Shown here piece after piece: positions 1-37,562 of a stretch of DNA of 37,562 nt. This DNA comes from a virus. Lineage: Duplodnaviria; Heunggongvirae; Uroviricota; Caudoviricetes. The notes under the pieces were generated by a model. That model saw only the letters and a program-made list of their open reading frames with translations, did not search any database and was not told the DNA's origin. A program made the translations under genes and the position numbers. The stretch lies in IMG/VR virus record IMGVR_UViG_2534681673_000007, positions 1-37,562 of that record, one strand, 5' to 3'. Numbering within the stretch: position 1 is the first letter of the stretch; each line of letters starts with the position of its first letter.

Positions 1-774
<774 letters not shown>

Positions 775-1322
775 GTATTCAATTGATAAGATTAAACCGC
801 AGCACGTTATTGCATACAACGTGTCTGCGTTTTCAACTCCGCCGCCCCCCAATCATGATTGGACAGCACTTGCAAAAAAAAGAAATTAGTATTCTCAGCA
901 GGACACCGGTCAGATAGTGCGGCAGATCAATGTCTGGTGAATATTGATGACCGCTGCCCGCTGATTCTATTGCCGAAACTGTGCGGGAAAAGATGTGGCA
1001 AGATATTGTTGGTAAAAAATTCTCAGTGACTTTATGCCAGCAAATCAGTTTGCCTGGCATCCAGTATCGTGTGCGGTGGATAATGTCAAAAAACATGGGG
1101 AGTCGATTAAACAGGTATAATCGTTAAAAACCTTCAAACTCCAGGCAAAACCCTATTTCATAGAACATGTACTTTCATCTGGTATACATGAACGAATTAT
1201 GACTGCGTTAGTAAAATTACCCTGGTTAAATTACAGGCAGAGATATATGTTCCAGTCCAGTGCTTTTTCGTTTACAATATTTATCTTTCATTATCACTTG
1301 ACTTTATTAAAAGAGGTTCGTT

Positions 1323-2390
1323 GTGACGAATGTTTTTGGGAAGAGAATATATACCCTGGATGTTCTGAGAGGATTTGCCGCACTTTCCGTTGTGTTATGG
1401 CATTGGCAACATTTTTTTATGAAAAAGAATGCTGCATCTGACATAATCATAAACCGCCAACCTTTTTATGAATTTTTTTCCGTCTTTTATCATTACGGTT
1501 TATATGCTGTCGAATTGTTTTTTATGATTTCTGGATTCATATTTTTTTATCTATACGCTGACAATATACACAGCAATAAAACCTCAGCAAAAACTTTTAT
1601 AGTTAACCGTGTCAGTAGATTATATCCACTTTATATATTTACATTTGCTGTCGTGGCAATATTGCAAATTATTTTCTTTAAAAGTCATAATTATTTTTTT
1701 GTTTATCCTATGAATGACATTTACCATGCCATTCTGAATTTATTGATGATTCAATCATGGGGATTTGAGCGAGGTTGGTCCTTCAACGCCCCGACATGGT
1801 CCGTGTCGATTGAAGTACTTATGTACATGATATTTTTTATATTATGCAAGTTCACATCAAAAACAACATTCATATCAATTTTAATAGTTGCATTATCGTA
1901 CTACTTTTTCAAAATTAACAATCCCATAATGATCGGCGCATTCTCTTTCTTTATTGGTGGTCTGACCTATAAAATTACGATTGCGGCCATAAAAAATATT
2001 AGCGCAAAGTTATTTTTTATTTTTGCTTGTGTTTTTCTATTGATCTCATGGGGAGTTATCTTTACCCTGCAAGTAGCAGATATATTCTCAATTATCTTAT
2101 TCGGATTTACCTCCATAATTTTTTTCCTTGTATCAATTAGCGCAATACGAAACGATTTTGGGAAAAAAATTGAATGGTTGGGTGATATCAGTTATTCATC
2201 TTATCTTTTACATTTTCCTTTGCAAATCATTGTTGTTTATTTAGCTGACAAGATTGGCTATGGACGCGATCTTTTTTACAGCCCCAAGGTATTCATTTTA
2301 TTCATGCTTACATTAATGGCAATTAGCTATATGTCATATATATTCATTGAAAAACCATCGCAACAATTCATCCGAGATAAATTTCATTAA
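1323..2390 (+). CDS. Acyltransferase-3 family integral membrane protein (putative O-antigen/LPS O-acetyltransferase, lysogenic-conversion type)
   Basis: ORF 1323..2390 with GTG start preceded by AAGAGG. About 10 hydrophobic segments. N-terminal LDVLRGFAALSVVLWH motif typical of OafA/Oac-like acyltransferases. Visibly AT-rich compared with the phage core. Confidence 0.75.
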   Translation: MTNVFGKRIYTLDVLRGFAALSVVLWHWQHFFMKKNAASDIIINRQPFYEFFSVFYHYGLYAVELFFMISGFIFFYLYADNIHSNKTSAKTFIVNRVSRLYPLYIFTFAVVAILQIIFFKSHNYFFVYPMNDIYHAILNLLMIQSWGFERGWSFNAPTWSVSIEVLMYMIFFILCKFTSKTTFISILIVALSYYFFKINNPIMIGAFSFFIGGLTYKITIAAIKNISAKLFFIFACVFLLISWGVIFTLQVADIFSIILFGFTSIIFFLVSISAIRNDFGKKIEWLGDISYSSYLLHFPLQIIVVYLADKIGYGRDLFYSPKVFILFMLTLMAISYMSYIFIEKPSQQFIRDKFH

Positions 2391-2408
2391 GTAAAGTCAC
2401 TTTGCAAT

Positions 2409-2443
2409 GATTAGAGTCAACAACTATTACTTTGACTCTAATC
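2409..2443. terminator. Perfect 12-bp inverted repeat (GATTAGAGTCAA / TTGACTCTAATC, 11-nt loop) between convergent genes; possible bidirectional terminator or cargo boundary
   Basis: Seen directly in the gap between the acyltransferase stop (2390) and the tail fibre assembly stop (2651). No U-tract on either strand. Confidence 0.3.
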
Positions 2444-2650
2444 ACACTGCAGTTTATCCGTATGCTCTATATTCATAAAAATCGACATCAATATATAGAA
2501 TGGAAATAAACGAAACCGCGTCACATCCTCAATATAGAAGCGTTCAAAGCCTTGCAAACCATTGCGAGGCTTTATGTGTCACAGTTTTATCCTACTTTTA
2601 TTACACAAAAAGAATTGAGTTACAATTAAACCGCTTCTCCTCAACAGATT

Positions 2651-3067
2651 TTATTCAGCGAAGCACGGTTCATCCGGCCACTCAATATCCGGTGCAATGC
2701 TGGTATCTGTTGCCGTCACAGCCTCGATATAATCCAGCACAACGTTAAGTCGGGTAGTTTCTTCTTGCGTCAGTTTGCGCCCGGCCTGCAGCTTTAACTG
2801 AATCACGCTGATATTGGCCATTGCTGCGTCTATCAGCGACTGTTTTTTCTGTTCAGCGTCAGCTACCAGTTCATCATGAGAACGTTCCGGAGGGAGCGGC
2901 GCAGTAAATACCCCGTCTGAATATGCCCAGCCGATTCCGGGCTGCTCACTGATATCAGAAATATTAATGAGCTGCAGATTATCCGGCACAGTGAATTCAT
3001 CCTCGCCATCCCAGACAATGACATTCACAACCATCCCATTTTCAATAACTGCATATGACGCATTCAT
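2651..3067 (-). CDS. Tail fibre assembly protein (chaperone)
   Basis: Start [16 protein letters not shown] at 3067, overlapping the upstream stop (TAATG). Position immediately downstream of the tail fibre gene. Sequence typical of Tfa-family proteins. Confidence 0.8.
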   Translation of the reverse strand: MNASYAVIENGMVVNVIVWDGEDEFTVPDNLQLINISDISEQPGIGWAYSDGVFTAPLPPERSHDELVADAEQKKQSLIDAAMANISVIQLKLQAGRKLTQEETTRLNVVLDYIEAVTATDTSIAPDIEWPDEPCFAE

Positions 3068-3993
3068 TATGCAAACTCCTCGATAATACAAACCCCAGCA
3101 GCACCTTTCCCGCCCGTCATACTGGTTCCGCTATAACCTGCATCGTATGCACCACCTCCGCCTGAACCAAATGCCCTGCCTCTAACGCCACCGCCAGCGC
3201 CTGCGCGTCCACCGCCTCCCCAGTACGATGCACCGCCTTCACCGCTGACGCCGATATTCCCGGACTGACCGTCGCCTCCATCTCCACCAGTGATGCGGAT
3301 ATCGCCAATATTCGGTACGCCTCCGTTACCGCCGTTTGTGTTTGTGACTCCTGATTTTCCGCCGCCTTCACCACCAGGGGCTATTACCGATCCGAACGAG
3401 CTATCACCGCCCTTGAGGCCGTTCGTCGCACCAACGCCGCCGGCCCCACCTGCGCCGATAGTGACAGGATAACTATTCTGTGTCGGGGTCAGTATGGTGA
3501 TTACTGTCCCTCCGGCCCCACCGCCAGCACCGAAAAACGTTTCGTTACTGGATATAGCCTGGCAGCCCCCCCCTCCGCCACCGCCGCCCGTTATTGTGAC
3601 CCTGATCCGTTTTGTTTCTAGTGATGGGGTATACGTACCTGATGACGCGAAAGCCCGGGTACTCAGCCGGCGTCCCACGTATCCGCTTGTATCTCCCAAA
3701 CCAAGGTTTTGAAGAGCCGTTTTCACCGTGCCGTCCGATTTGATATCGCCAAACGGATTTTTGCGACTTAACAGCAGCGCACGAAGCGCGGTAAGCAGCT
3801 GGTCATGCCGCCCCTTCTCCAGGCTGGCACCGGATGCCTCCACCACGCTGCAGAGCTCTTCCTGCAACATGTCAAAGTAGTCATCATCCAGATCGGTGGC
3901 AGGCGTGCCTGTCTGGGGGTTACCACGGGTAAAACCGTTCTTACCCGCGCCGAACTTATCCTTTTGCGCGGTTTTCGTGTCTATACGATGCAT
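3067..3993 (-). CDS. Tail fibre protein with glycine-rich repeat domain
   Basis: ORF 3067..3993. Long Gly-rich tracts ([25 protein letters not shown]). Sits between the Mu gp48-like gene and the Tfa gene. Confidence 0.75.
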
Positions 3994-22808: not shown

Positions 22809-23181
22809 CTGAACCTCCCCGGCGCGTTATGAGCGCCACCAGCGAGCCGATATCCTGATTATTCAGGAACGTCAGGATTTTAACGGCTAAAGCAGAGACG
22901 ATTACGGCACCAATAGCATCCAGAGGTTTATCACTGTATCCGGTCAAGTTTGCCAGCTTGGAGCCAACCAACCCAGAGCAAAGGATCCCAGCAATATATG
23001 ACACGATAAAATATGCCAGTCGACGCGATGCACTCAGATCTGCTGCTGTTGCTATATAGAATACAGCCCCTGCAAATGCGCCAAATACAACGCCGTAATC
23101 AGTTCCGGTCAGCAGTCCATAAATACTAGCGCCCGTTAGGGCTCCACCAGCTAACCCTGTGCCGGAAATCGGATCGGACAT
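22795..23181 (-). CDS. Holin-family membrane protein
   Basis: Start MSDPISGTGLAGGALTG at 23181 with GAGGTG RBS. Gly/Ala-rich TM segments. First gene of the lysis cassette. Confidence 0.6.
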   Translation of the reverse strand: MSDPISGTGLAGGALTGASIYGLLTGTDYGVVFGAFAGAVFYIATAADLSASRRLAYFIVSYIAGILCSGLVGSKLANLTGYSDKPLDAIGAVIVSALAVKILTFLNNQDIGSLVALITRRGGSGGAK

Positions 23182-23289
23182 TAGCCACCTCTTATTGCAG
23201 TGAGTCCTCTCAGAAATAGAAATGAGAGGAATAAAAAAGGCCACCATTTGGCAGCCATAGAATTGATGTAATTATAACTAATTCATTAA

Positions 23290-24096
23290 CTATTTCTTAA
23301 TGATGCTATTTAACATTTCTAATGCAAAAAGTAACATGGAGCTAATAAAATATAATATAACCGCACTGGCAATCGCTCCAATTATAGCCTGGACACTCCA
23401 GTGAAAGTAATTTTTACCATTAATAACAAACTTAACACTAGGAAACAAAAAGTCGATAAGCTTAATTATTAATGGAATAGCAAAGCTCCATAAGTTCGAA
23501 AACAAAATAAAGATACAAATAAATGATAAAGCAAATGCACCATCGATTGATAGTTTTGGCGCCAGTTTTGAGGCTGTCCATAAGCTAAGCAAAAAGCCAA
23601 CTGTCACACCTGAAATCTGGATACTTAACATAGTCCAAGCTGTTCTAAAAAATCTAAATTTATTTTTGCACTTGTTAAGTAAATCCTGAATCGTAATCCA
23701 TAACGAGTCAACCCACTCATTATCTTCCGATGCTACAATCATTGTGCTGCTATTTGAATTCCTCTCATCAATTCGTAGCTCCATCCAAGATCCATTCATC
23801 CTGTTAGACTGTCGACTTTGATAAGTTTCAATAGTAAAAATTATTTGATCAATCCTAGTGGCCTGTCTAAAGTATTTCACAAGCTCACCGATAGAATCAA
23901 CTTTATATCCCTTACCATCGAACAAAATAAAAAAAATACATTGAGCACAAACTTCCCTACTTTCCTTTTGAGCTTGCTCATTCATTTTAACGCAGCGTTC
24001 GACAATTGCCGTGCTTAAGCTAATCAAGCTATCTTCATTTATAGAAACACCTGAAATATTCTTGCTTCTGTAAAAATATGACACTTTCGATTCCAC
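23290..24096 (-). CDS. Unknown cargo protein: soluble N-terminal domain (about 160 aa) fused to C-terminal multi-pass TM domain
   Basis: 268-aa ORF in a markedly AT-rich segment. Hydrophobic helices near the C-terminus (GVTVGFLLSLW, AFALSFICIFILF, AIIGAIASAVILYFISSMLLFAL). Start codon uncertain (GTG 24096 or downstream). Confidence 0.6.
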   Translation of the reverse strand: MESKVSYFYRSKNISGVSINEDSLISLSTAIVERCVKMNEQAQKESREVCAQCIFFILFDGKGYKVDSIGELVKYFRQATRIDQIIFTIETYQSRQSNRMNGSWMELRIDERNSNSSTMIVASEDNEWVDSLWITIQDLLNKCKNKFRFFRTAWTMLSIQISGVTVGFLLSLWTASKLAPKLSIDGAFALSFICIFILFSNLWSFAIPLIIKLIDFLFPSVKFVINGKNYFHWSVQAIIGAIASAVILYFISSMLLFALEMLNSIIKK

Positions 24097-24293
24097 TCCG
24101 CACCAGTCTCGATTTAGCGCAGGTTAACATAACCACTTCATTGGTAGAAGAAAAGAACTCTTCTTGTCAGAAAGCTACTGTGATATCCCTAAACCTGCAG
24201 ATGATACAGAACAAAATTTAAGCATCAATTGTAGGCGATTTTAAATTCACTTTACAGTTTAGGCTGCCAATTGGCAGCCGATTGAAGCAGAAA

Positions 24294-24563
24294 TCAATGA
24301 GTGCTCATCGATGAATTTTTTTCAGCGCCAATCTCACTCAAAAAAGCAAAACCTTTTGACGTTATATCATTAGCAATCAATCCACCTTCGGCAGATTTGC
24401 TTCGTATAACATCGATAAAACCTATATCAGCAAGATCTGAAATAGCAAAATTAACCTCTTTTGCTGAGAGATGAGGTAATGATGCAGCCTGAATTCTAGA
24501 ATCCTTTGGCTGCAATTCATTCACTCGACGTAGTATTTCAAGATGGATAGAGGTCAGTTTCAT
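24294..24563 (-). CDS. Unknown small cargo protein (89 aa), possibly DNA-binding/regulatory
   Basis: ATG at 24563 with AGGAG 6 nt upstream. AT-rich. Directly downstream of the Q-distal terminator and upstream of the membrane protein. Confidence 0.6.
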   Translation of the reverse strand: MKLTSIHLEILRRVNELQPKDSRIQAASLPHLSAKEVNFAISDLADIGFIDVIRSKSAEGGLIANDITSKGFAFLSEIGAEKNSSMSTH

Positions 24564-24646
24564 AATGTTCTCCTGTTTTTAATGTTGTTTTACAGAAAAC
24601 ATTATAACACATTGATTTTGATGTAGATTGAATAGAAAAAAACCAT

Positions 24647-24669
24647 AAAAAAACCTCGCAATAGCGAGG
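24647..24669 (-). terminator. Rho-independent terminator (CCUCGC-UAUU-GCGAGG plus U7 tract) downstream of Q; candidate tR'
   Basis: Stem 24654-24659/24664-24669; on the minus strand it is followed by TTTTTTTATGGTTTTTTT. Confidence 0.6.
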
Positions 24670-24777
24670 TCGTAAAAATTGTTCAACGATAGATACACAA
24701 GCCCCATCGTTGAGAAAATCTTATCCATATTTTTTGAGAAACACAAGTATTATGTCGTTATCTTCGGCGAAAATCGC

Positions 24778-25530
24778 TTATCTCGTCACCCTTCTCAATT
24801 GTGCTTCAGCGTAAGCTTCCTCCTGCCAGCACTTTGTAACCAGTTTATCAATGACATCTGCATATCCTTTGTACCACTGATAATCCGTCAGGTCTGGTAC
24901 CAGCTTCTGGACATGAAGCCGCGCCAGTGTGGTTGGTAAACGGCTAAACCGGTTTCCATTGCAACGCCCACAAATCTTATAAACAGGCGTGCCATGAAGC
25001 CGGGTTCTTTTTTCATCCAGGACAATACCTTTACCCTTACACCCTCTGCACGCTGTGCTGACTTCTCCCTTACCATGACAATGCTGACATAGTTCCTTCA
25101 CCCACTCTTCCTTGATAACAGACTCCCCGCTTCTGGAGTGTTTCACCACTTCGCGCAATACATTATGAAATCCAGTACCAGCACAATGCTCACAGCGAGC
25201 CTTACTTGCCGCAGACCTGGAATAATCAGCAAAGGCAAAATTCACAAGGTAAGGAATGATCTGTAGCCGGGTTTCTTCACTCAATTTGTTCAATGTCGGG
25301 TTATCCAGTGCCATCGCGTAATTGAGCAGACCTTCAATCGCAAACAGAGGATCCTGAACACCAACTTTTGCCAGGAATAAGGCAAACCCAAGCGGTGCTT
25401 TCGACTGCACCATCCCCTGCGCAGCCATCACATCTGTAATTGTTAAACCACCCGAGCCTGTCGCCGGTGCGTCATCACTCAATTTTGGAGATTTTGGGGA
25501 GTAATATTTTGGTAAGGCTTCAAGGTTCAT
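24778..25530 (-). CDS. Late-gene antitermination protein Q (Qin/phage 82-type)
   Basis: 250-aa ORF with Cys-rich zinc-binding region (CEHCAGTG...CQHCHGKG...CRGCKGKG...CGRCNGN). Position upstream of the lysis genes. Confidence 0.8.
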   Translation of the reverse strand: MNLEALPKYYSPKSPKLSDDAPATGSGGLTITDVMAAQGMVQSKAPLGFALFLAKVGVQDPLFAIEGLLNYAMALDNPTLNKLSEETRLQIIPYLVNFAFADYSRSAASKARCEHCAGTGFHNVLREVVKHSRSGESVIKEEWVKELCQHCHGKGEVSTACRGCKGKGIVLDEKRTRLHGTPVYKICGRCNGNRFSRLPTTLARLHVQKLVPDLTDYQWYKGYADVIDKLVTKCWQEEAYAEAQLRRVTR

Positions 25531-27505: not shown

Positions 27506-29005
<1,500 letters not shown>

Positions 29006-32000: not shown

Positions 32001-32674
32001 ATGAAAACAATCCATGACATCCGGCGGTCTAACGCCAGAAAACTGAGAGATGGTGTTGGCGGGAATTCTTCCTTTGCCACTATGATTGATCGCGAGCCAA
32101 CCCAGACCAGCAGGTTTATGGGAGATGGTGCTACTAAAAATATCGGTGACAGCATGGCACGACACATCGAAAAATGTTTCGACCTGCCTGTCGGATGGCT
32201 CGATCAAGAACACCAGACAACGAACATCACAAAAAACCTGATGTTTCAATCACTAATAAACAAATCACATTAGTCCCTGTCATATCATGGGTACAGGCCG
32301 GAGCATGGAAAGAAGTTGGATATTCTGAGGTTGATTTGAGCACAGCAGAAACGTATCCCTGCCCTGTACCCTGTGGGGAAATGACTTATATCTTGCGGGT
32401 GATAGGTGATTCAATGATTGATGAGTACCGCCCGGGAGACATGATTTTTGTCGATCCTGAAGTACCTGCCTGCCACGGTGACGACGTTATTGCATTGATG
32501 CACGATACAGGTGAAACCACCTTCAAAAGGTTGATAGAAGATGGGACACAGCGTTATCTCAAAGCGTTAAACCCAAACTGGCCTGAGCCTTACATTAAGA
32601 TCAACGGTAATTGCTCTATAATTGGTACAGTGATTTTCTCAGGAAAACCAAGAAGATACAAAATCAAAGCCTAA
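32001..32674 (+). pseudogene. CI-like repressor (N-terminal HTH plus C-terminal LexA-like S24 peptidase domain) with reading frame split at an A6 run (32231-32236)
   Basis: HTH in frame of ORF 32001..32273. S24 domain (PVISWVQAGAW...GDSM...FKRL) in frame of ORF 32174..32674. One extra A would fuse them as ...NITKKPDVSITNKQITLVPVISW... Confidence 0.6.
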
Positions 32675-35226: not shown

Positions 35227-35436
35227 ATGGCAAAACTAATGAAAGCGAGCCAATGGGGACGCCGTGAATTCTCTAATGGCTCAATTCCTGACAACCGAAC
35301 GATAAAACGCTGGGTCGAGAACGGTCTGCTCATGGGGCGTATCGTGGACGGTTCTGTTTTTGTCTGCGAAACAGAAAAATGGGGAGTCGACTCAATGGTT
35401 AGTCAAGCTGTTCGCAAGTTAATAAATGAGGGGTGA
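35227..35436 (+). CDS. xis: Excisionase-like protein
   Basis: 69-aa product, ATG at 35227 with GGAG upstream. Overlaps the integrase start. Motif TIKRWVENGLLMGRIVDGSVFV resembles excisionase-type wHTH. Confidence 0.6.
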   Translation: MAKLMKASQWGRREFSNGSIPDNRTIKRWVENGLLMGRIVDGSVFVCETEKWGVDSMVSQAVRKLINEG

Positions 35437-36617
35437 CCATGGCGGCAAGGCCACGTAAAAAAGAATACAGACATCTTCCTGATTATCTGATTTTTGATAA
35501 AGATCGAGGTGTTTATAAATTCACACTTATTACCGGAAAGAAGAAAAATATAGGTAAGGATAGGGCAATAGCCATTGCAATCGCCAGAGAGTACAACCTG
35601 AGGATGCGACCAGAATTATCTCCATCAGTAGATAATCTTATTAGAGAATCTGGCGGTGTTATCGGAGAAGCAAAACCATTTGCTGAACATGTTGATCACA
35701 TAATGGCCCGAATTATCGAAGACGAACGTCCTTCCCAGAGCACCTTAGATGACTGGAAAAATGACGCTCTACGCGTAAAAGCGTTTTTCGTAAATGTTCC
35801 GGCATGCGATATCGAACTTGAACACGTTAATACCTACATCAACAAATATCATGCCAGCGCATCCGCAAATGTGCAGAACAGAAAGGTCAGCTTTCTTAAA
35901 AAGTTGTTCTCTTATGCGGTCGATGAATCACTAATGCTGGATAACCCGGCCATCAGAAAAAAAATGCGTAGGACTGATGAGAAGAAAAGACGGCGCCTGT
36001 CACTCGAGCATTTTATAGCTATCAGGCAGGCCGCTGCACCATGGTTAAGAACAGCAATGGACCTAGCATTGCAGACTACACATGCACGACTCGAAGTATC
36101 GCGAATCCGTTACTCAATTCGCGAACCTAAAGACGGTATATGTGGATGTGTCTGGTTCGAACAACCACAAAATGGCATATATGGGACGCTTTACATCCAC
36201 AGGCAAAAAGTGCAACAAAAAGAGGCGTCACACGTTGCAATACCAATTGGTGAAGAGTTGAAACGGATAATTGACGATAGCCGAGATAATGTGGCCAGTC
36301 CGTTTGTCGTTCACAGGATCCCAGAACGCCAAGTTAAACGCAGCAAAGAGGTTTCACATCCTACTCAAGTTGCACCGGACTATTTGAGTAGGTCGTTTTC
36401 AGCTACACGGGACAAACTAGGTTTATGCGACAATCTACCAATGGATGAAAGACCAACCTTTCACGAAATTCGAGCACTAGCAGCGCATCTATTCGATCAG
36501 CAGGGTATCGATCCACAAGGACGAATGGCGCACAGCGATGCGAAGTCAACCAAGATCTACACGCAAAATCATATAGATTGGGTTGTCGTTCCCCATGGAG
36601 AAATTAAAGCCAGCTAA
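35433..36617 (+). CDS. int: Tyrosine integrase (lambda Int family)
   Basis: 394 aa. N-terminal arm-binding region similar to lambda Int (HLPDYL...GKDRAIAIAIA). C-terminal catalytic region with PTFHEIRAL...AHSDAKSTKIYTQ (R/H/R/Y pattern). Confidence 0.9.
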   Translation: MTMAARPRKKEYRHLPDYLIFDKDRGVYKFTLITGKKKNIGKDRAIAIAIAREYNLRMRPELSPSVDNLIRESGGVIGEAKPFAEHVDHIMARIIEDERPSQSTLDDWKNDALRVKAFFVNVPACDIELEHVNTYINKYHASASANVQNRKVSFLKKLFSYAVDESLMLDNPAIRKKMRRTDEKKRRRLSLEHFIAIRQAAAPWLRTAMDLALQTTHARLEVSRIRYSIREPKDGICGCVWFEQPQNGIYGTLYIHRQKVQQKEASHVAIPIGEELKRIIDDSRDNVASPFVVHRIPERQVKRSKEVSHPTQVAPDYLSRSFSATRDKLGLCDNLPMDERPTFHEIRALAAHLFDQQGIDPQGRMAHSDAKSTKIYTQNHIDWVVVPHGEIKAS

Positions 36618-36710: not shown

Positions 36711-37562
36711 TCAAAGTGAGTAATTGGAGAGTTCTTCAATCATTGACCGATAATGTATACCGATACTATCGGCAAATTTTTCGCCCATCCCCTCAACTGA
36801 CGCAATTAGGCAGTCTGTAGCAACCTTCAGGGATATTATGACTAAGCAGATGTCAGCTTCACTGGGTGCACCATGACCGCTAAATTCATCAATCCTGTGG
36901 ATAGCCAGTGGCAATGGATGAGCCAGATTTGATAGTAACTGGTGATGTAGTGCAATGTCGGCTAACCGCGGGCAGCGAGCTTCGAACTCAGCTTTGGTAT
37001 AATACATTTCGGCCCTGTTTTTGAGACTATTCTTTTGTTCTTTAGATAGTGAACTATAGAATTCATGGTTCACTATCTCCTCCTGCTGCTTTGGTATGCC
37101 GGTGAAAAACTCCTCCAGTGATTCTTCAGATTCACCAGCCTTCAGTCTGATATCACGCCATTTAACATTTCTGTCTTTCTGGAAAATTCGAAAACGAAAG
37201 TCAGCCTCCGCTTCCGAGACCGTTTCCGTTCCGTAATAAAAAAGCGCCTGAAAATTTTCCATCACACTTCTGGACACAAGTGCGATAGTGGTTACATCCC
37301 ATACTGTATCATCGGGATTAACTCCGTTTCGCAGTACTGGTAGTAGTTTCTTAAGACTATGCGCAGTCAACACTTGACGAGTGAAAATATTTGCAGCCCG
37401 TATTCCCCTGCCGTCAGTCTTAATTCCGCTTTGATTCAGTGATATGGCCGCGGAAATTTCACAAGCGCGGCAGAAGATCTTATAAAGGCTAATGTAAGAC
37501 CTCTCAACCTCAGTGTGTTCTCGGAAACGAATGTTACTGCCTTTTTTAGTTCTTTTTTTCAT
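36711..37562 (-). CDS. Unknown protein (283 aa) immediately beyond the integrase 3' end
   Basis: Complete ORF whose ATG is the last codon of the window, so its promoter is outside. No recognised catalytic motif. Confidence 0.5.
   Translation of the reverse strand: MKKRTKKGSNIRFREHTEVERSYISLYKIFCRACEISAAISLNQSGIKTDGRGIRAANIFTRQVLTAHSLKKLLPVLRNGVNPDDTVWDVTTIALVSRSVMENFQALFYYGTETVSEAEADFRFRIFQKDRNVKWRDIRLKAGESEESLEEFFTGIPKQQEEIVNHEFYSSLSKEQKNSLKNRAEMYYTKAEFEARCPRLADIALHHQLLSNLAHPLPLAIHRIDEFSGHGAPSEADICLVIISLKVATDCLIASVEGMGEKFADSIGIHYRSMIEELSNYSL

Follow-up and report, generated by a model that had tools for sequence, protein, structure and literature searches.

The DNA analysed here is a 37,562-nucleotide stretch comprising the whole of IMG/VR virus record IMGVR_UViG_2534681673_000007 (hereafter the window), whose gene content is that of a complete temperate phage genome. 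At positions 1323 to 2390 it carries an AT-rich gene for a membrane acyltransferase of the acyltransferase-3 (AT3) family, and we report that the Escherichia coli strains which carry this gene are for the most part strains with a polymannose O-antigen: 42/48 hosts (88%) belong to O8 or to the O9 family, against a background of about 9%. We moderately favour a reading in which the gene is lysogenic-conversion cargo of an SfV-family phage, whose product would O-acylate the O8/O9 mannan and so mask the receptor; a mannose-polymer O-antigen is probably the substrate, and this target is previously unreported. O-antigen acetyltransferases carried by phages are familiar from Shigella and Salmonella, in which they drive serotype diversity and matter for vaccines and phage resistance; to our knowledge little has been characterised of those in E. 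coli, and O8, O9 and O9a are regarded as mannans without modification. As a phage-borne AT3 modifier of the O-antigen the gene would thus be of a known kind; what is new is the association with O8/O9 polymannan hosts, together with an apparently co-inherited module of fibre tip, fibre chaperone and AT3 gene.

Host serogroups of the acyltransferase gene

The AT3 gene is present in 49/5426 complete E. coli genomes at 97-100% nucleotide identity, a recurrence which shows that the feature is not a product of chance, and 47 of the 49 host genomes carry an uninterrupted full-length copy. In strain PD7, which is neither O8 nor O9, the gene is split by IS1B (NZ_CP074047.1, 4279102-4281391); only the 3' third is kept in strain Z0117EC0116 (NZ_CP098192.1, 3857464-3857807). 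Two of the hosts could be recognised as O8, and the wzm-wzt-wbdD segment of the O8 strain IAI1 is present in 309 genomes. Co-occurrence with serogroup was read by means of chimeric queries in which the AT3 region was joined to a shorter serogroup marker. The O8 wzm gene was carried by 35/48 chromosomes with a full-length AT3 gene, an enrichment for O8 alone with a Fisher odds ratio of 56 and a p-value of 1.5e-35 which overstates independence, since the genomes are related by descent and several are almost copies of one another. The O-antigen locus of the non-O8 host a15 proved to be of the O9 family (manC, rfbK, wzm, wzt, wbdD and wbdA/B/C), and a second chimeric query found O9-family wzm/wzt in 7/13 non-O8 hosts. 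With approximately 282 O8 and 211 O9-family genomes as the background among the 5426, the gene is carried by about 12% of the O8 genomes and about 3% of those of the O9 family. A single O-type shared by all non-O8 hosts was ruled out by the 7/13 O9-family hosts and by the distinct type of strain PC-NDM34, which occurs in ten genomes only and in no other AT3 host.

The host association does not reflect one clone, because several chromosomal sites, two allele groups (at least 98.7% and approximately 97.5% identity) and two prophage backbones are involved; one integration region is used in O8 as well as in O9 hosts. Strain AR_0369 (O8, NZ_CP027140.1) carries two copies of the gene at different sites. 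It should be noted that strains IAI1 (O8) and a15 (O9) have, besides the his-linked mannan cluster, differing Wzx/Wzy-type clusters between galF and gnd, which may specify a second surface polymer.

The acyltransferase gene, its slot and the portable module

The features of the window to which the text refers are as follows.

1323-2390, plus strand: AT3-only (PF01757) membrane acyltransferase gene of 355 amino acids with a GTG start, the candidate conversion gene
1204-1322, plus strand: conserved upstream leader of the AT3 cassette, kept in the IAI1 and Citrobacter freundii alleles
1250-1278, plus strand: weak sigma-70-like promoter candidate read by eye, TTCCAG (1250-1255), 17-nt spacer, TACAAT (1273-1278)
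2408-2444, plus strand: 13-bp perfect hairpin just 3' of the AT3 stop codon, folding energy (dG) -20.2 kcal/mol, no U-tract
2547-2574, no strand: second, GC-richer hairpin (AAAGCCTTGCAA/TTGCGAGGCTTT) between the convergent AT3 and fibre-assembly genes, a candidate bidirectional terminator
2651-3091, minus strand: tail fibre assembly chaperone gene, convergent with the AT3 gene (PF02413 Caudo_TAP, E=2.2e-21; PHROG 188)
3067-3993, minus strand: glycine-rich tail fibre gene (PF21722 Gly_rich_2 and several tail-fibre PHROGs)
802-3705, no strand: portable 2.9-kb module of upstream non-coding region, AT3 gene, fibre-assembly gene and fibre tip, found as a single blastn block
1-774, plus strand: neighbouring accessory gene for the GIY-YIG nuclease defence protein PD-T4-3 (PADLOC E=3.3e-140 over the full length; Pfam LEM-3_GIY-YIG)
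32174-32674: S24 repressor gene
35433-36617: integrase gene, at the end of the window opposite the AT3 gene

The AT3 open reading frame (ORF) is preceded by a Shine-Dalgarno sequence, AAGAGG at 1311-1316, 6 nt before the GTG, and RefSeq places the identical start on the copy of E. coli ET791 (WP_000185984.1, "acyltransferase"). The original prediction, which was made from the sequence of the window, had described the ORF as strongly AT-rich, its product as polytopic with the N-terminal motif of O-acetyltransferases of the OafA/Oac type, and its position as adjoining the tail fibre genes, and each part of this description holds. The gene has 31.9% GC (33% at third codon positions) in surroundings of roughly 55% GC, with a GC profile of 0.31 in the windows covering 1501-2500 versus 0.56-0.60 in the tail genes to the right, and the fibre-assembly and fibre genes follow directly on the opposite strand. 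The protein matches PF01757 Acyl_transf_3 with E=1.4e-24 and 87.3 bits (cutoff 31) over profile positions 2-320 of 326, and PHROG 3333 "O-acetyltransferase" with E=1.4e-40, the match to PHROG 6705 "O-antigen acetylase" being only 3e-8. Searches of NCBIfam and PADLOC gave it no assignment. Its motifs are R16-X10-H27 in the first helix, FFMISG (F66 to G71) and RVSR (R96 to R99), which correspond to R/K-X10-H, FFXISG and RXXR, the motifs that define AT3 proteins and whose residues are reportedly conserved, and for the most part essential, in Oac, OafA and OafB (PMC7448272; PMC9558356). In an alignment of 30 homologues with 39-86% identity R16, H27, F66, F67, S70, G71, R96 and R99 are all invariant, as is W159-S160-x-S162-x-E164, in which both x positions vary.

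An AlphaFold2 model computed from the alignment of 30 homologues (pLDDT 90.2, pTM 0.89) is all-helical with approximately 10 membrane-length helices. The protein has no sequence homologue in the PDB, and the best solved-structure match proposed for the model by Foldseek was HGSNAT (8vlv_A, probability 1.00, query TM-score 0.43); human HGSNAT has recently been united with the AT3 enzymes as the TmAT superfamily (PMC12423673). The architecture is AT3-only, in that the protein has a single Pfam domain and ends at residue 355 with its last helix, and neither an 11th helix nor a fused periplasmic SGNH domain was found by Pfam or in the model. We predict from these features that the ORF encodes an AT3-only transmembrane O-acyltransferase, intact at the residues which characterise the family. 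The dN/dS of the window allele is 0.17-0.19 against the alleles of IAI1 (dS 0.08) and Citrobacter (dS 0.40), which indicates that the gene is maintained by selection, and the reading frame is intact in 3/3 translated alleles (window, IAI1 and Citrobacter).

The structural genes of the phage are 97.8% identical to those of Shigella phage SfV over 93% of 18 kb, and the next-closest backbones are SfII (approximately 97% identical over 73% of the query), SfI and SfIV. All four are classical serotype-converting phages of S. flexneri. Between the two ends of the window lie the Q antiterminator, holin, terminase and HK97-type head genes, and beyond the fibre gene the minus strand continues with a Mu-gp48-like gene and then a baseplate-J gene. 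No DNA nearly identical to the AT3 gene was found in sequenced phages, the best phage protein match being 38% identical and encoded on an unannotated human faecal contig. The slot in which the gene lies is one used for conversion genes in related phages. In SfV it holds gtrV-gtrB-gtrA, convergent and directly past the fibre-assembly gene and a terminator; in SfII it holds the acyltransferase gene SfII_25 followed by gtrII-gtrB-gtrA, again convergent with the fibre-assembly gene; and in the unrelated podovirus Sf6 the oac gene is likewise convergent with the tailspike gene and adjoins int and attP. The prophage of E. coli ET791 adjoins yejM and tRNA-Pro with the AT3 gene at the end opposite the integrase, and in the circular phage record NZ_CP081704.1 the order is attP (a dusA fragment), int, DinI, a type II restriction-modification pair, PD-T4-3/GIY-YIG, AT3 and the convergent fibre genes. 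From this order it follows that the AT3 gene sits in an accessory region between attP/int and the receptor-binding genes, and with its atypical base composition it has the position of a conversion cassette.

Record NZ_CP081704.1 (43,680 bp) bears the title "plasmid unnamed3" of strain AH02, but what it contains is a whole circular phage genome and not a plasmid; strain CT01 has likewise a circular phage record, CP081794, deposited as a plasmid. A chromosomal copy is also present in both AH02 and CT01, which suggests active excision. In ET791, whose AT3 gene is 100% identical, an inversion in the tail region has broken the tape-measure gene into two pseudogene pieces; the prophage there is probably defective, with its AT3 gene nonetheless intact.

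The 802-3705 block is shared at 93.8% identity with a prophage of IAI1 which has a different baseplate and tail backbone (DUF2612, spike-type) and is integrated near yfhH, and there too the AT3 gene lies at the prophage edge, convergent with fibre-assembly and glycine-rich fibre genes. Within the fibre gene the N-terminal part of approximately 100 codons (3692-3993) is SfV-like and homology with SfV and SfII stops at about 3692, the right edge of the module at 3705 coinciding with the end of SfV homology; the C-terminal glycine-rich tip (3067-3705) belongs to the exchangeable module. A Citrobacter freundii prophage shares just 1204-2480 at 87.9% identity, that is the AT3 gene, the 120-nt leader and the 13-bp hairpin, and this block defines the minimal AT3 cassette. 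Across hosts the cassette is more conserved (97-100%) than the neighbouring fibre genes (93-100%). The module holds no gene for an SGNH protein or other candidate partner of the acyltransferase.

The leader of approximately 120 nt, in which TACAAT (1273-1278) and the Shine-Dalgarno sequence lie, hardly differs between the window, IAI1 and Citrobacter lineages. We regard the TACAAT site as a candidate promoter element, on which the consensus scan made no call; the counts of this promoter and terminator scan were no better than in shuffled sequence, with nothing convincing at either end of the AT3 gene. The hairpin at 2408-2444, which falls within the minimal cassette shared with Citrobacter, is a candidate terminator or recombination joint. 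The hairpin at 2547-2574 was seen by reading the sequence and by folding, a simple terminator scan having made no call; in each of SfV, SfII and Sf6 a terminator is annotated at the corresponding place. Nothing points to phase variation of the Dam/OxyR type, as in Salmonella gtr operons, there being a single GATC in the 550 nt upstream of the gene. Rfam gave no match in or near the AT3 gene.

Some further observations concern the rest of the phage. The PD-T4-3 gene is retained in sister prophages without the AT3 gene. In one of them, an SfV-like prophage of E. coli O103:H2 CEC12044 (NZ_AP038983), the slot holds a pinE invertase gene, a gp53-like fibre tip and a second fibre-assembly gene, an arrangement in which an invertible host-range switch replaces AT3. 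Homology of the window with this Pin-bearing prophage ends approximately 50 nt past the GIY-YIG gene, near 825, and a remnant of the Pin invertase in 775-1322 was rejected, as nothing aligns past about 825 and the 87-amino-acid ORF on the minus strand there has no family match. The early prophage region contains a full-length Rfam match to isrC, an Hfq-binding small RNA (28565-28687, minus strand, 150 bits). A second low-GC island (0.35-0.40) lies at approximately 23000-25000 between the holin and Q antiterminator genes, an interval which is a classical cargo position of lambdoid phages; its ORF at 23290-24096 (minus strand, 268 amino acids) had no match in Pfam or PADLOC. The same holds for the ORF beyond the integrase at 36711-37562 (minus strand, 283 amino acids), and since the ATG of this ORF is the last base of the window, the window seems to have been trimmed at gene boundaries.

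Proposed function and its alternatives

In the reading we favour, the gene would be expressed from the prophage through its own leader, and the protein of approximately 10 helices, seated in the inner membrane, would draw on the acyl-CoA of the cytoplasm for an acyl group that is most likely acetyl, with the conserved R-X10-H and RXXR residues predicted to line the AT3 pore. A pore model of this type, for AT3 acyl transfer from the cytoplasm to the periplasmic face, has been described (PMC9833829). The acyl group would then be passed at the periplasmic face to a sugar hydroxyl of an undecaprenyl-linked polysaccharide before its ligation to lipid A-core, the most likely acceptor being the undecaprenyl pyrophosphate-linked O8 or O9/O9a polymannose after Wzm/Wzt export. 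Mannan is proposed as the acceptor because the gene lies in the conversion slot, distant relatives occur in O-polysaccharide loci that also rely on ABC export, and O8/O9 strains predominate among the hosts. The likely benefit to the phage would be an O-antigen masked against its own kind and against other mannan-dependent phages, with an epitope change as a side effect. Expression in the lysogen, the donor, the acceptor, the position of acylation and superinfection exclusion are all points that we infer.

The homologues of the protein are consistent with a role in surface polysaccharide modification. At the 90% level the protein's own cluster has 421 member sequences. The closest homologue, 86% identical, lies in the C. 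freundii prophage, which has the same tail type, and those of approximately 50% identity in Serratia, Klebsiella aerogenes and one further contig have fibre, baseplate or tailspike genes of a prophage as their neighbours, some of them on another tail lineage. Those of Pseudomonas savastanoi and Xanthomonas albilineans, approximately 43% identical, are encoded within O-polysaccharide loci that also contain ABC transporters of the Wzt_C type, rml genes, large glycosyltransferases of the GT4 family, methyltransferases and GtrA-like proteins. With the SfV-family slot, these cluster homologues, purifying selection and the proportion of O8/O9 hosts all pointing the same way, the suggestion in the original prediction that the gene is lysogenic-conversion cargo for a surface polysaccharide has strong comparative support. 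A more specific proposal, which we put forward tentatively and would not yet call probable, is that about 1/8 of O8 strains, and a few percent of those of O9, carry a prophage enzyme that O-acylates polymannose after Wzm/Wzt export, and that the cassette of fibre tip, chaperone and AT3 gene recombines as a unit into unrelated backbones.

Several observations weigh against mannan acylation by the phage enzyme. The published structures of O8, O9 and O9a are plain linear mannans with methyl or phosphomethyl caps and no mention of O-acetyl (PMC7685785; PMC10629545), which either counts against the proposal or means that the modification was missed, the gene being confined to a minority of strains. 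Enzymes of the AT3-only kind may depend on a partner not yet known (PMC9558356), the consensus scan found no convincing sigma-70 promoter for the gene, and the Kluyvera homologue (59% identical) is a solitary chromosomal gene with an uninformative context. Five hosts with an intact copy fall outside both O8 and the O9 family (CFSAN064035, PC-NDM34, 22AR0322, EJN001 and EBJ001); PC-NDM34, the one of these whose locus was read, has a Wzx/Wzy cluster with manB and manC and a predicted mannose-containing O-antigen. To the relatedness of the genomes, which inflates the significance of the association, is added the fact that the serogroup bias may stem from the host range which the linked fibre tip confers and not from the substrate of the enzyme. 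When a chimeric query of fibre tip and O8 wzm was used, this fibre type appeared in hundreds of records, often in multiple copies and also in plasmid records of approximately 90 kb, so that the serogroups of fibre-only strains are unreadable there.

This last point bears most on the strongest alternative, which we consider unlikely but well short of negligible, namely that a functional AT3 enzyme acts on another glycan, such as enterobacterial common antigen (ECA), the lipopolysaccharide core, osmoregulated periplasmic glucans (OPG), colanic acid or a K-antigen-like polymer specified between galF and gnd, and that the O8/O9 bias is one of fibre host range. The AT3 gene travels with the fibre tip, so host range alone could create such a bias, and the five intact copies outside O8 and O9 would fit. 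AT3-only proteins of E. coli do act on ECA (WecH) and OPG (OpgC) (PMC9558356), and the sole significant match of the window protein to a characterised E. coli AT3 protein is to the N-terminus of WecH (36% over 69 amino acids, E=3e-6); this similarity is, however, limited to the motif region common to the whole family. Conserved glycans such as ECA, core and OPG would give a phage no reason to keep the gene beside its receptor-binding genes, in the very slot where SfV-family phages keep O-antigen modification, and the Pseudomonas and Xanthomonas members of the family are embedded in O-polysaccharide clusters. The second, Wzx/Wzy-type cluster which O8/O9 hosts have at galF-gnd would offer a further acceptor, but these clusters differ in gene content between IAI1 and a15 whereas the mannan is common to the hosts.

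That the gene is passive or silent AT-rich cargo, hitch-hiking with the fibre tip and either unexpressed or without an acceptor in E. coli, seems to us improbable. A GC content of 32% makes silencing by H-NS plausible, neither a strong promoter nor a canonical terminator was found by the scan, one copy is disrupted by IS1 and one genome has a 3' remnant only; the lack of any mention of acylation in the published O8/O9 structures (PMC7685785; PMC10629545) would also fit. Silent cargo would not, however, be expected to show a dN/dS of 0.17 over a dS range of 0.08-0.40 with all catalytic-type residues kept, an uninterrupted full-length copy in 47/49 hosts and an open frame in 3/3 translated alleles, a 120-nt leader, Shine-Dalgarno sequence included, that is conserved between E. 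coli and Citrobacter, and a cassette which at 97-100% is better conserved among hosts than the fibre genes at 93-100%. Transfer of an acyl group other than acetyl (e.g., succinyl or a longer chain), or action only as a transmembrane shuttle for a separate periplasmic transferase, is similarly improbable and would alter a detail of mannan acylation and not replace it: the AT3 family does include succinyl and other acyl transferases (OpgC, IcaC), WecH can pass acetyl to the separate SGNH protein PatB, and the window protein has no fused SGNH domain, but the characterised phage AT3 modifiers of O-antigen named in the review are all acetyltransferases, the AT3-only ones without a known partner (PMC9558356), and 802-3705 offers no SGNH or other partner candidate.

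Should acylation of the polymannose prove true, a modification would be missing from the textbook structures of O8 and O9 and, by extension, of Klebsiella O5 and O3, as O8 and O9a have the same structures as the O5 and O3 antigens of Klebsiella (PMC7685785). Immunotherapy directed at the O antigens of Klebsiella is being pursued (PMC10629545). There would be hidden antigenic heterogeneity within common commensal, enterotoxigenic (ETEC) and avian pathogenic (APEC) E. coli serogroups, a clear case of AT3-only periplasmic modification of an O-polysaccharide exported by an ABC transporter, and a tractable SfV-like system for the joint inheritance of receptor-binding and receptor-masking functions. 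If it is not true, the gene is ordinary prophage cargo of a known family.

Comparison with known conversion systems

The nearest parallel among known systems is OacD (SfII_25) of phage SfII, which is likewise AT3-only, of approximately 350 amino acids and approximately 31% GC, is carried by a phage of the SfV family and occupies the same slot, downstream of and convergent with the fibre-assembly gene and before attP/int. OacD, on the SfII genome, is described as a 6-O-acetylase of the N-acetylglucosamine of the O-antigen (PMC9558356). The resemblance is one of position and not of sequence, as the best blastp match had an insignificant E=0.18, and this absence of significant similarity suggests independent recruitment of a different AT3 lineage. 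SfII in addition has gtrA, gtrB and gtrII, which the window lacks, and the O-antigen of OacD hosts is the Wzx/Wzy-made S. flexneri backbone and not an ABC-transporter mannan.

The original prediction had drawn its analogy with phage Sf6, and this was right in kind: Oac of Sf6 is likewise AT3-only with R-X10-H, FFxISG and RXXR, and its gene is convergent with the tailspike gene near int/attP. Close kinship was not borne out, the similarity to Oac being insignificant (blastp E=0.023, phmmer E=0.016; range 0.016-0.035), and OacD is the better analogue. Sf6 belongs to another phage family (P22-like podovirus), and the better PHROG match of Oac differs from that of the window protein. Within a comparison that covered Oac and OacD from a Shigella group which also includes OacB and OacC, the window protein is by its sequence an orthologue of neither.

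The gtrABV genes of SfV share with the AT3 gene the backbone, the slot and the orientation, and are also low-GC cargo acting on the O-antigen in the periplasm. The protein families are unrelated, and a three-protein glucosylation via undecaprenyl phosphate-glucose in SfV contrasts with a predicted one-protein acylation in the window. The fibre tip also differs from that of SfV, since the joint of the exchange falls within the fibre gene, at approximately 3692.

WecH and OpgC of E. coli K-12 and OafA/OafB of Salmonella belong to the same Pfam family and are presumed to work through the same kind of acyl-CoA pore. The genes of WecH and OpgC are part of the core chromosome, and their substrates are ECA and OPG; kinship with WecH was rejected, its N-terminal 69 amino acids alone being similar, and with OpgC there was no similarity. 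OafA and OafB have an 11th helix and a fused periplasmic SGNH domain (PMC7448272), both of which are absent from the window protein.

The AT3 proteins of the P. savastanoi/syringae and X. albilineans clusters (P0034, P0069) are by comparison true relatives, 43% identical over 98-100% of the length with E-values of about 1e-85 to 1e-90. They are chromosomal cluster genes and not phage cargo, their polymers are predicted from the rml genes to be rhamnose-based, and no characterised member was found among them in the literature. They share all of the invariant residues with the window protein, and their loci use Wzm/Wzt-type export as do those of E. coli O8 and O9.

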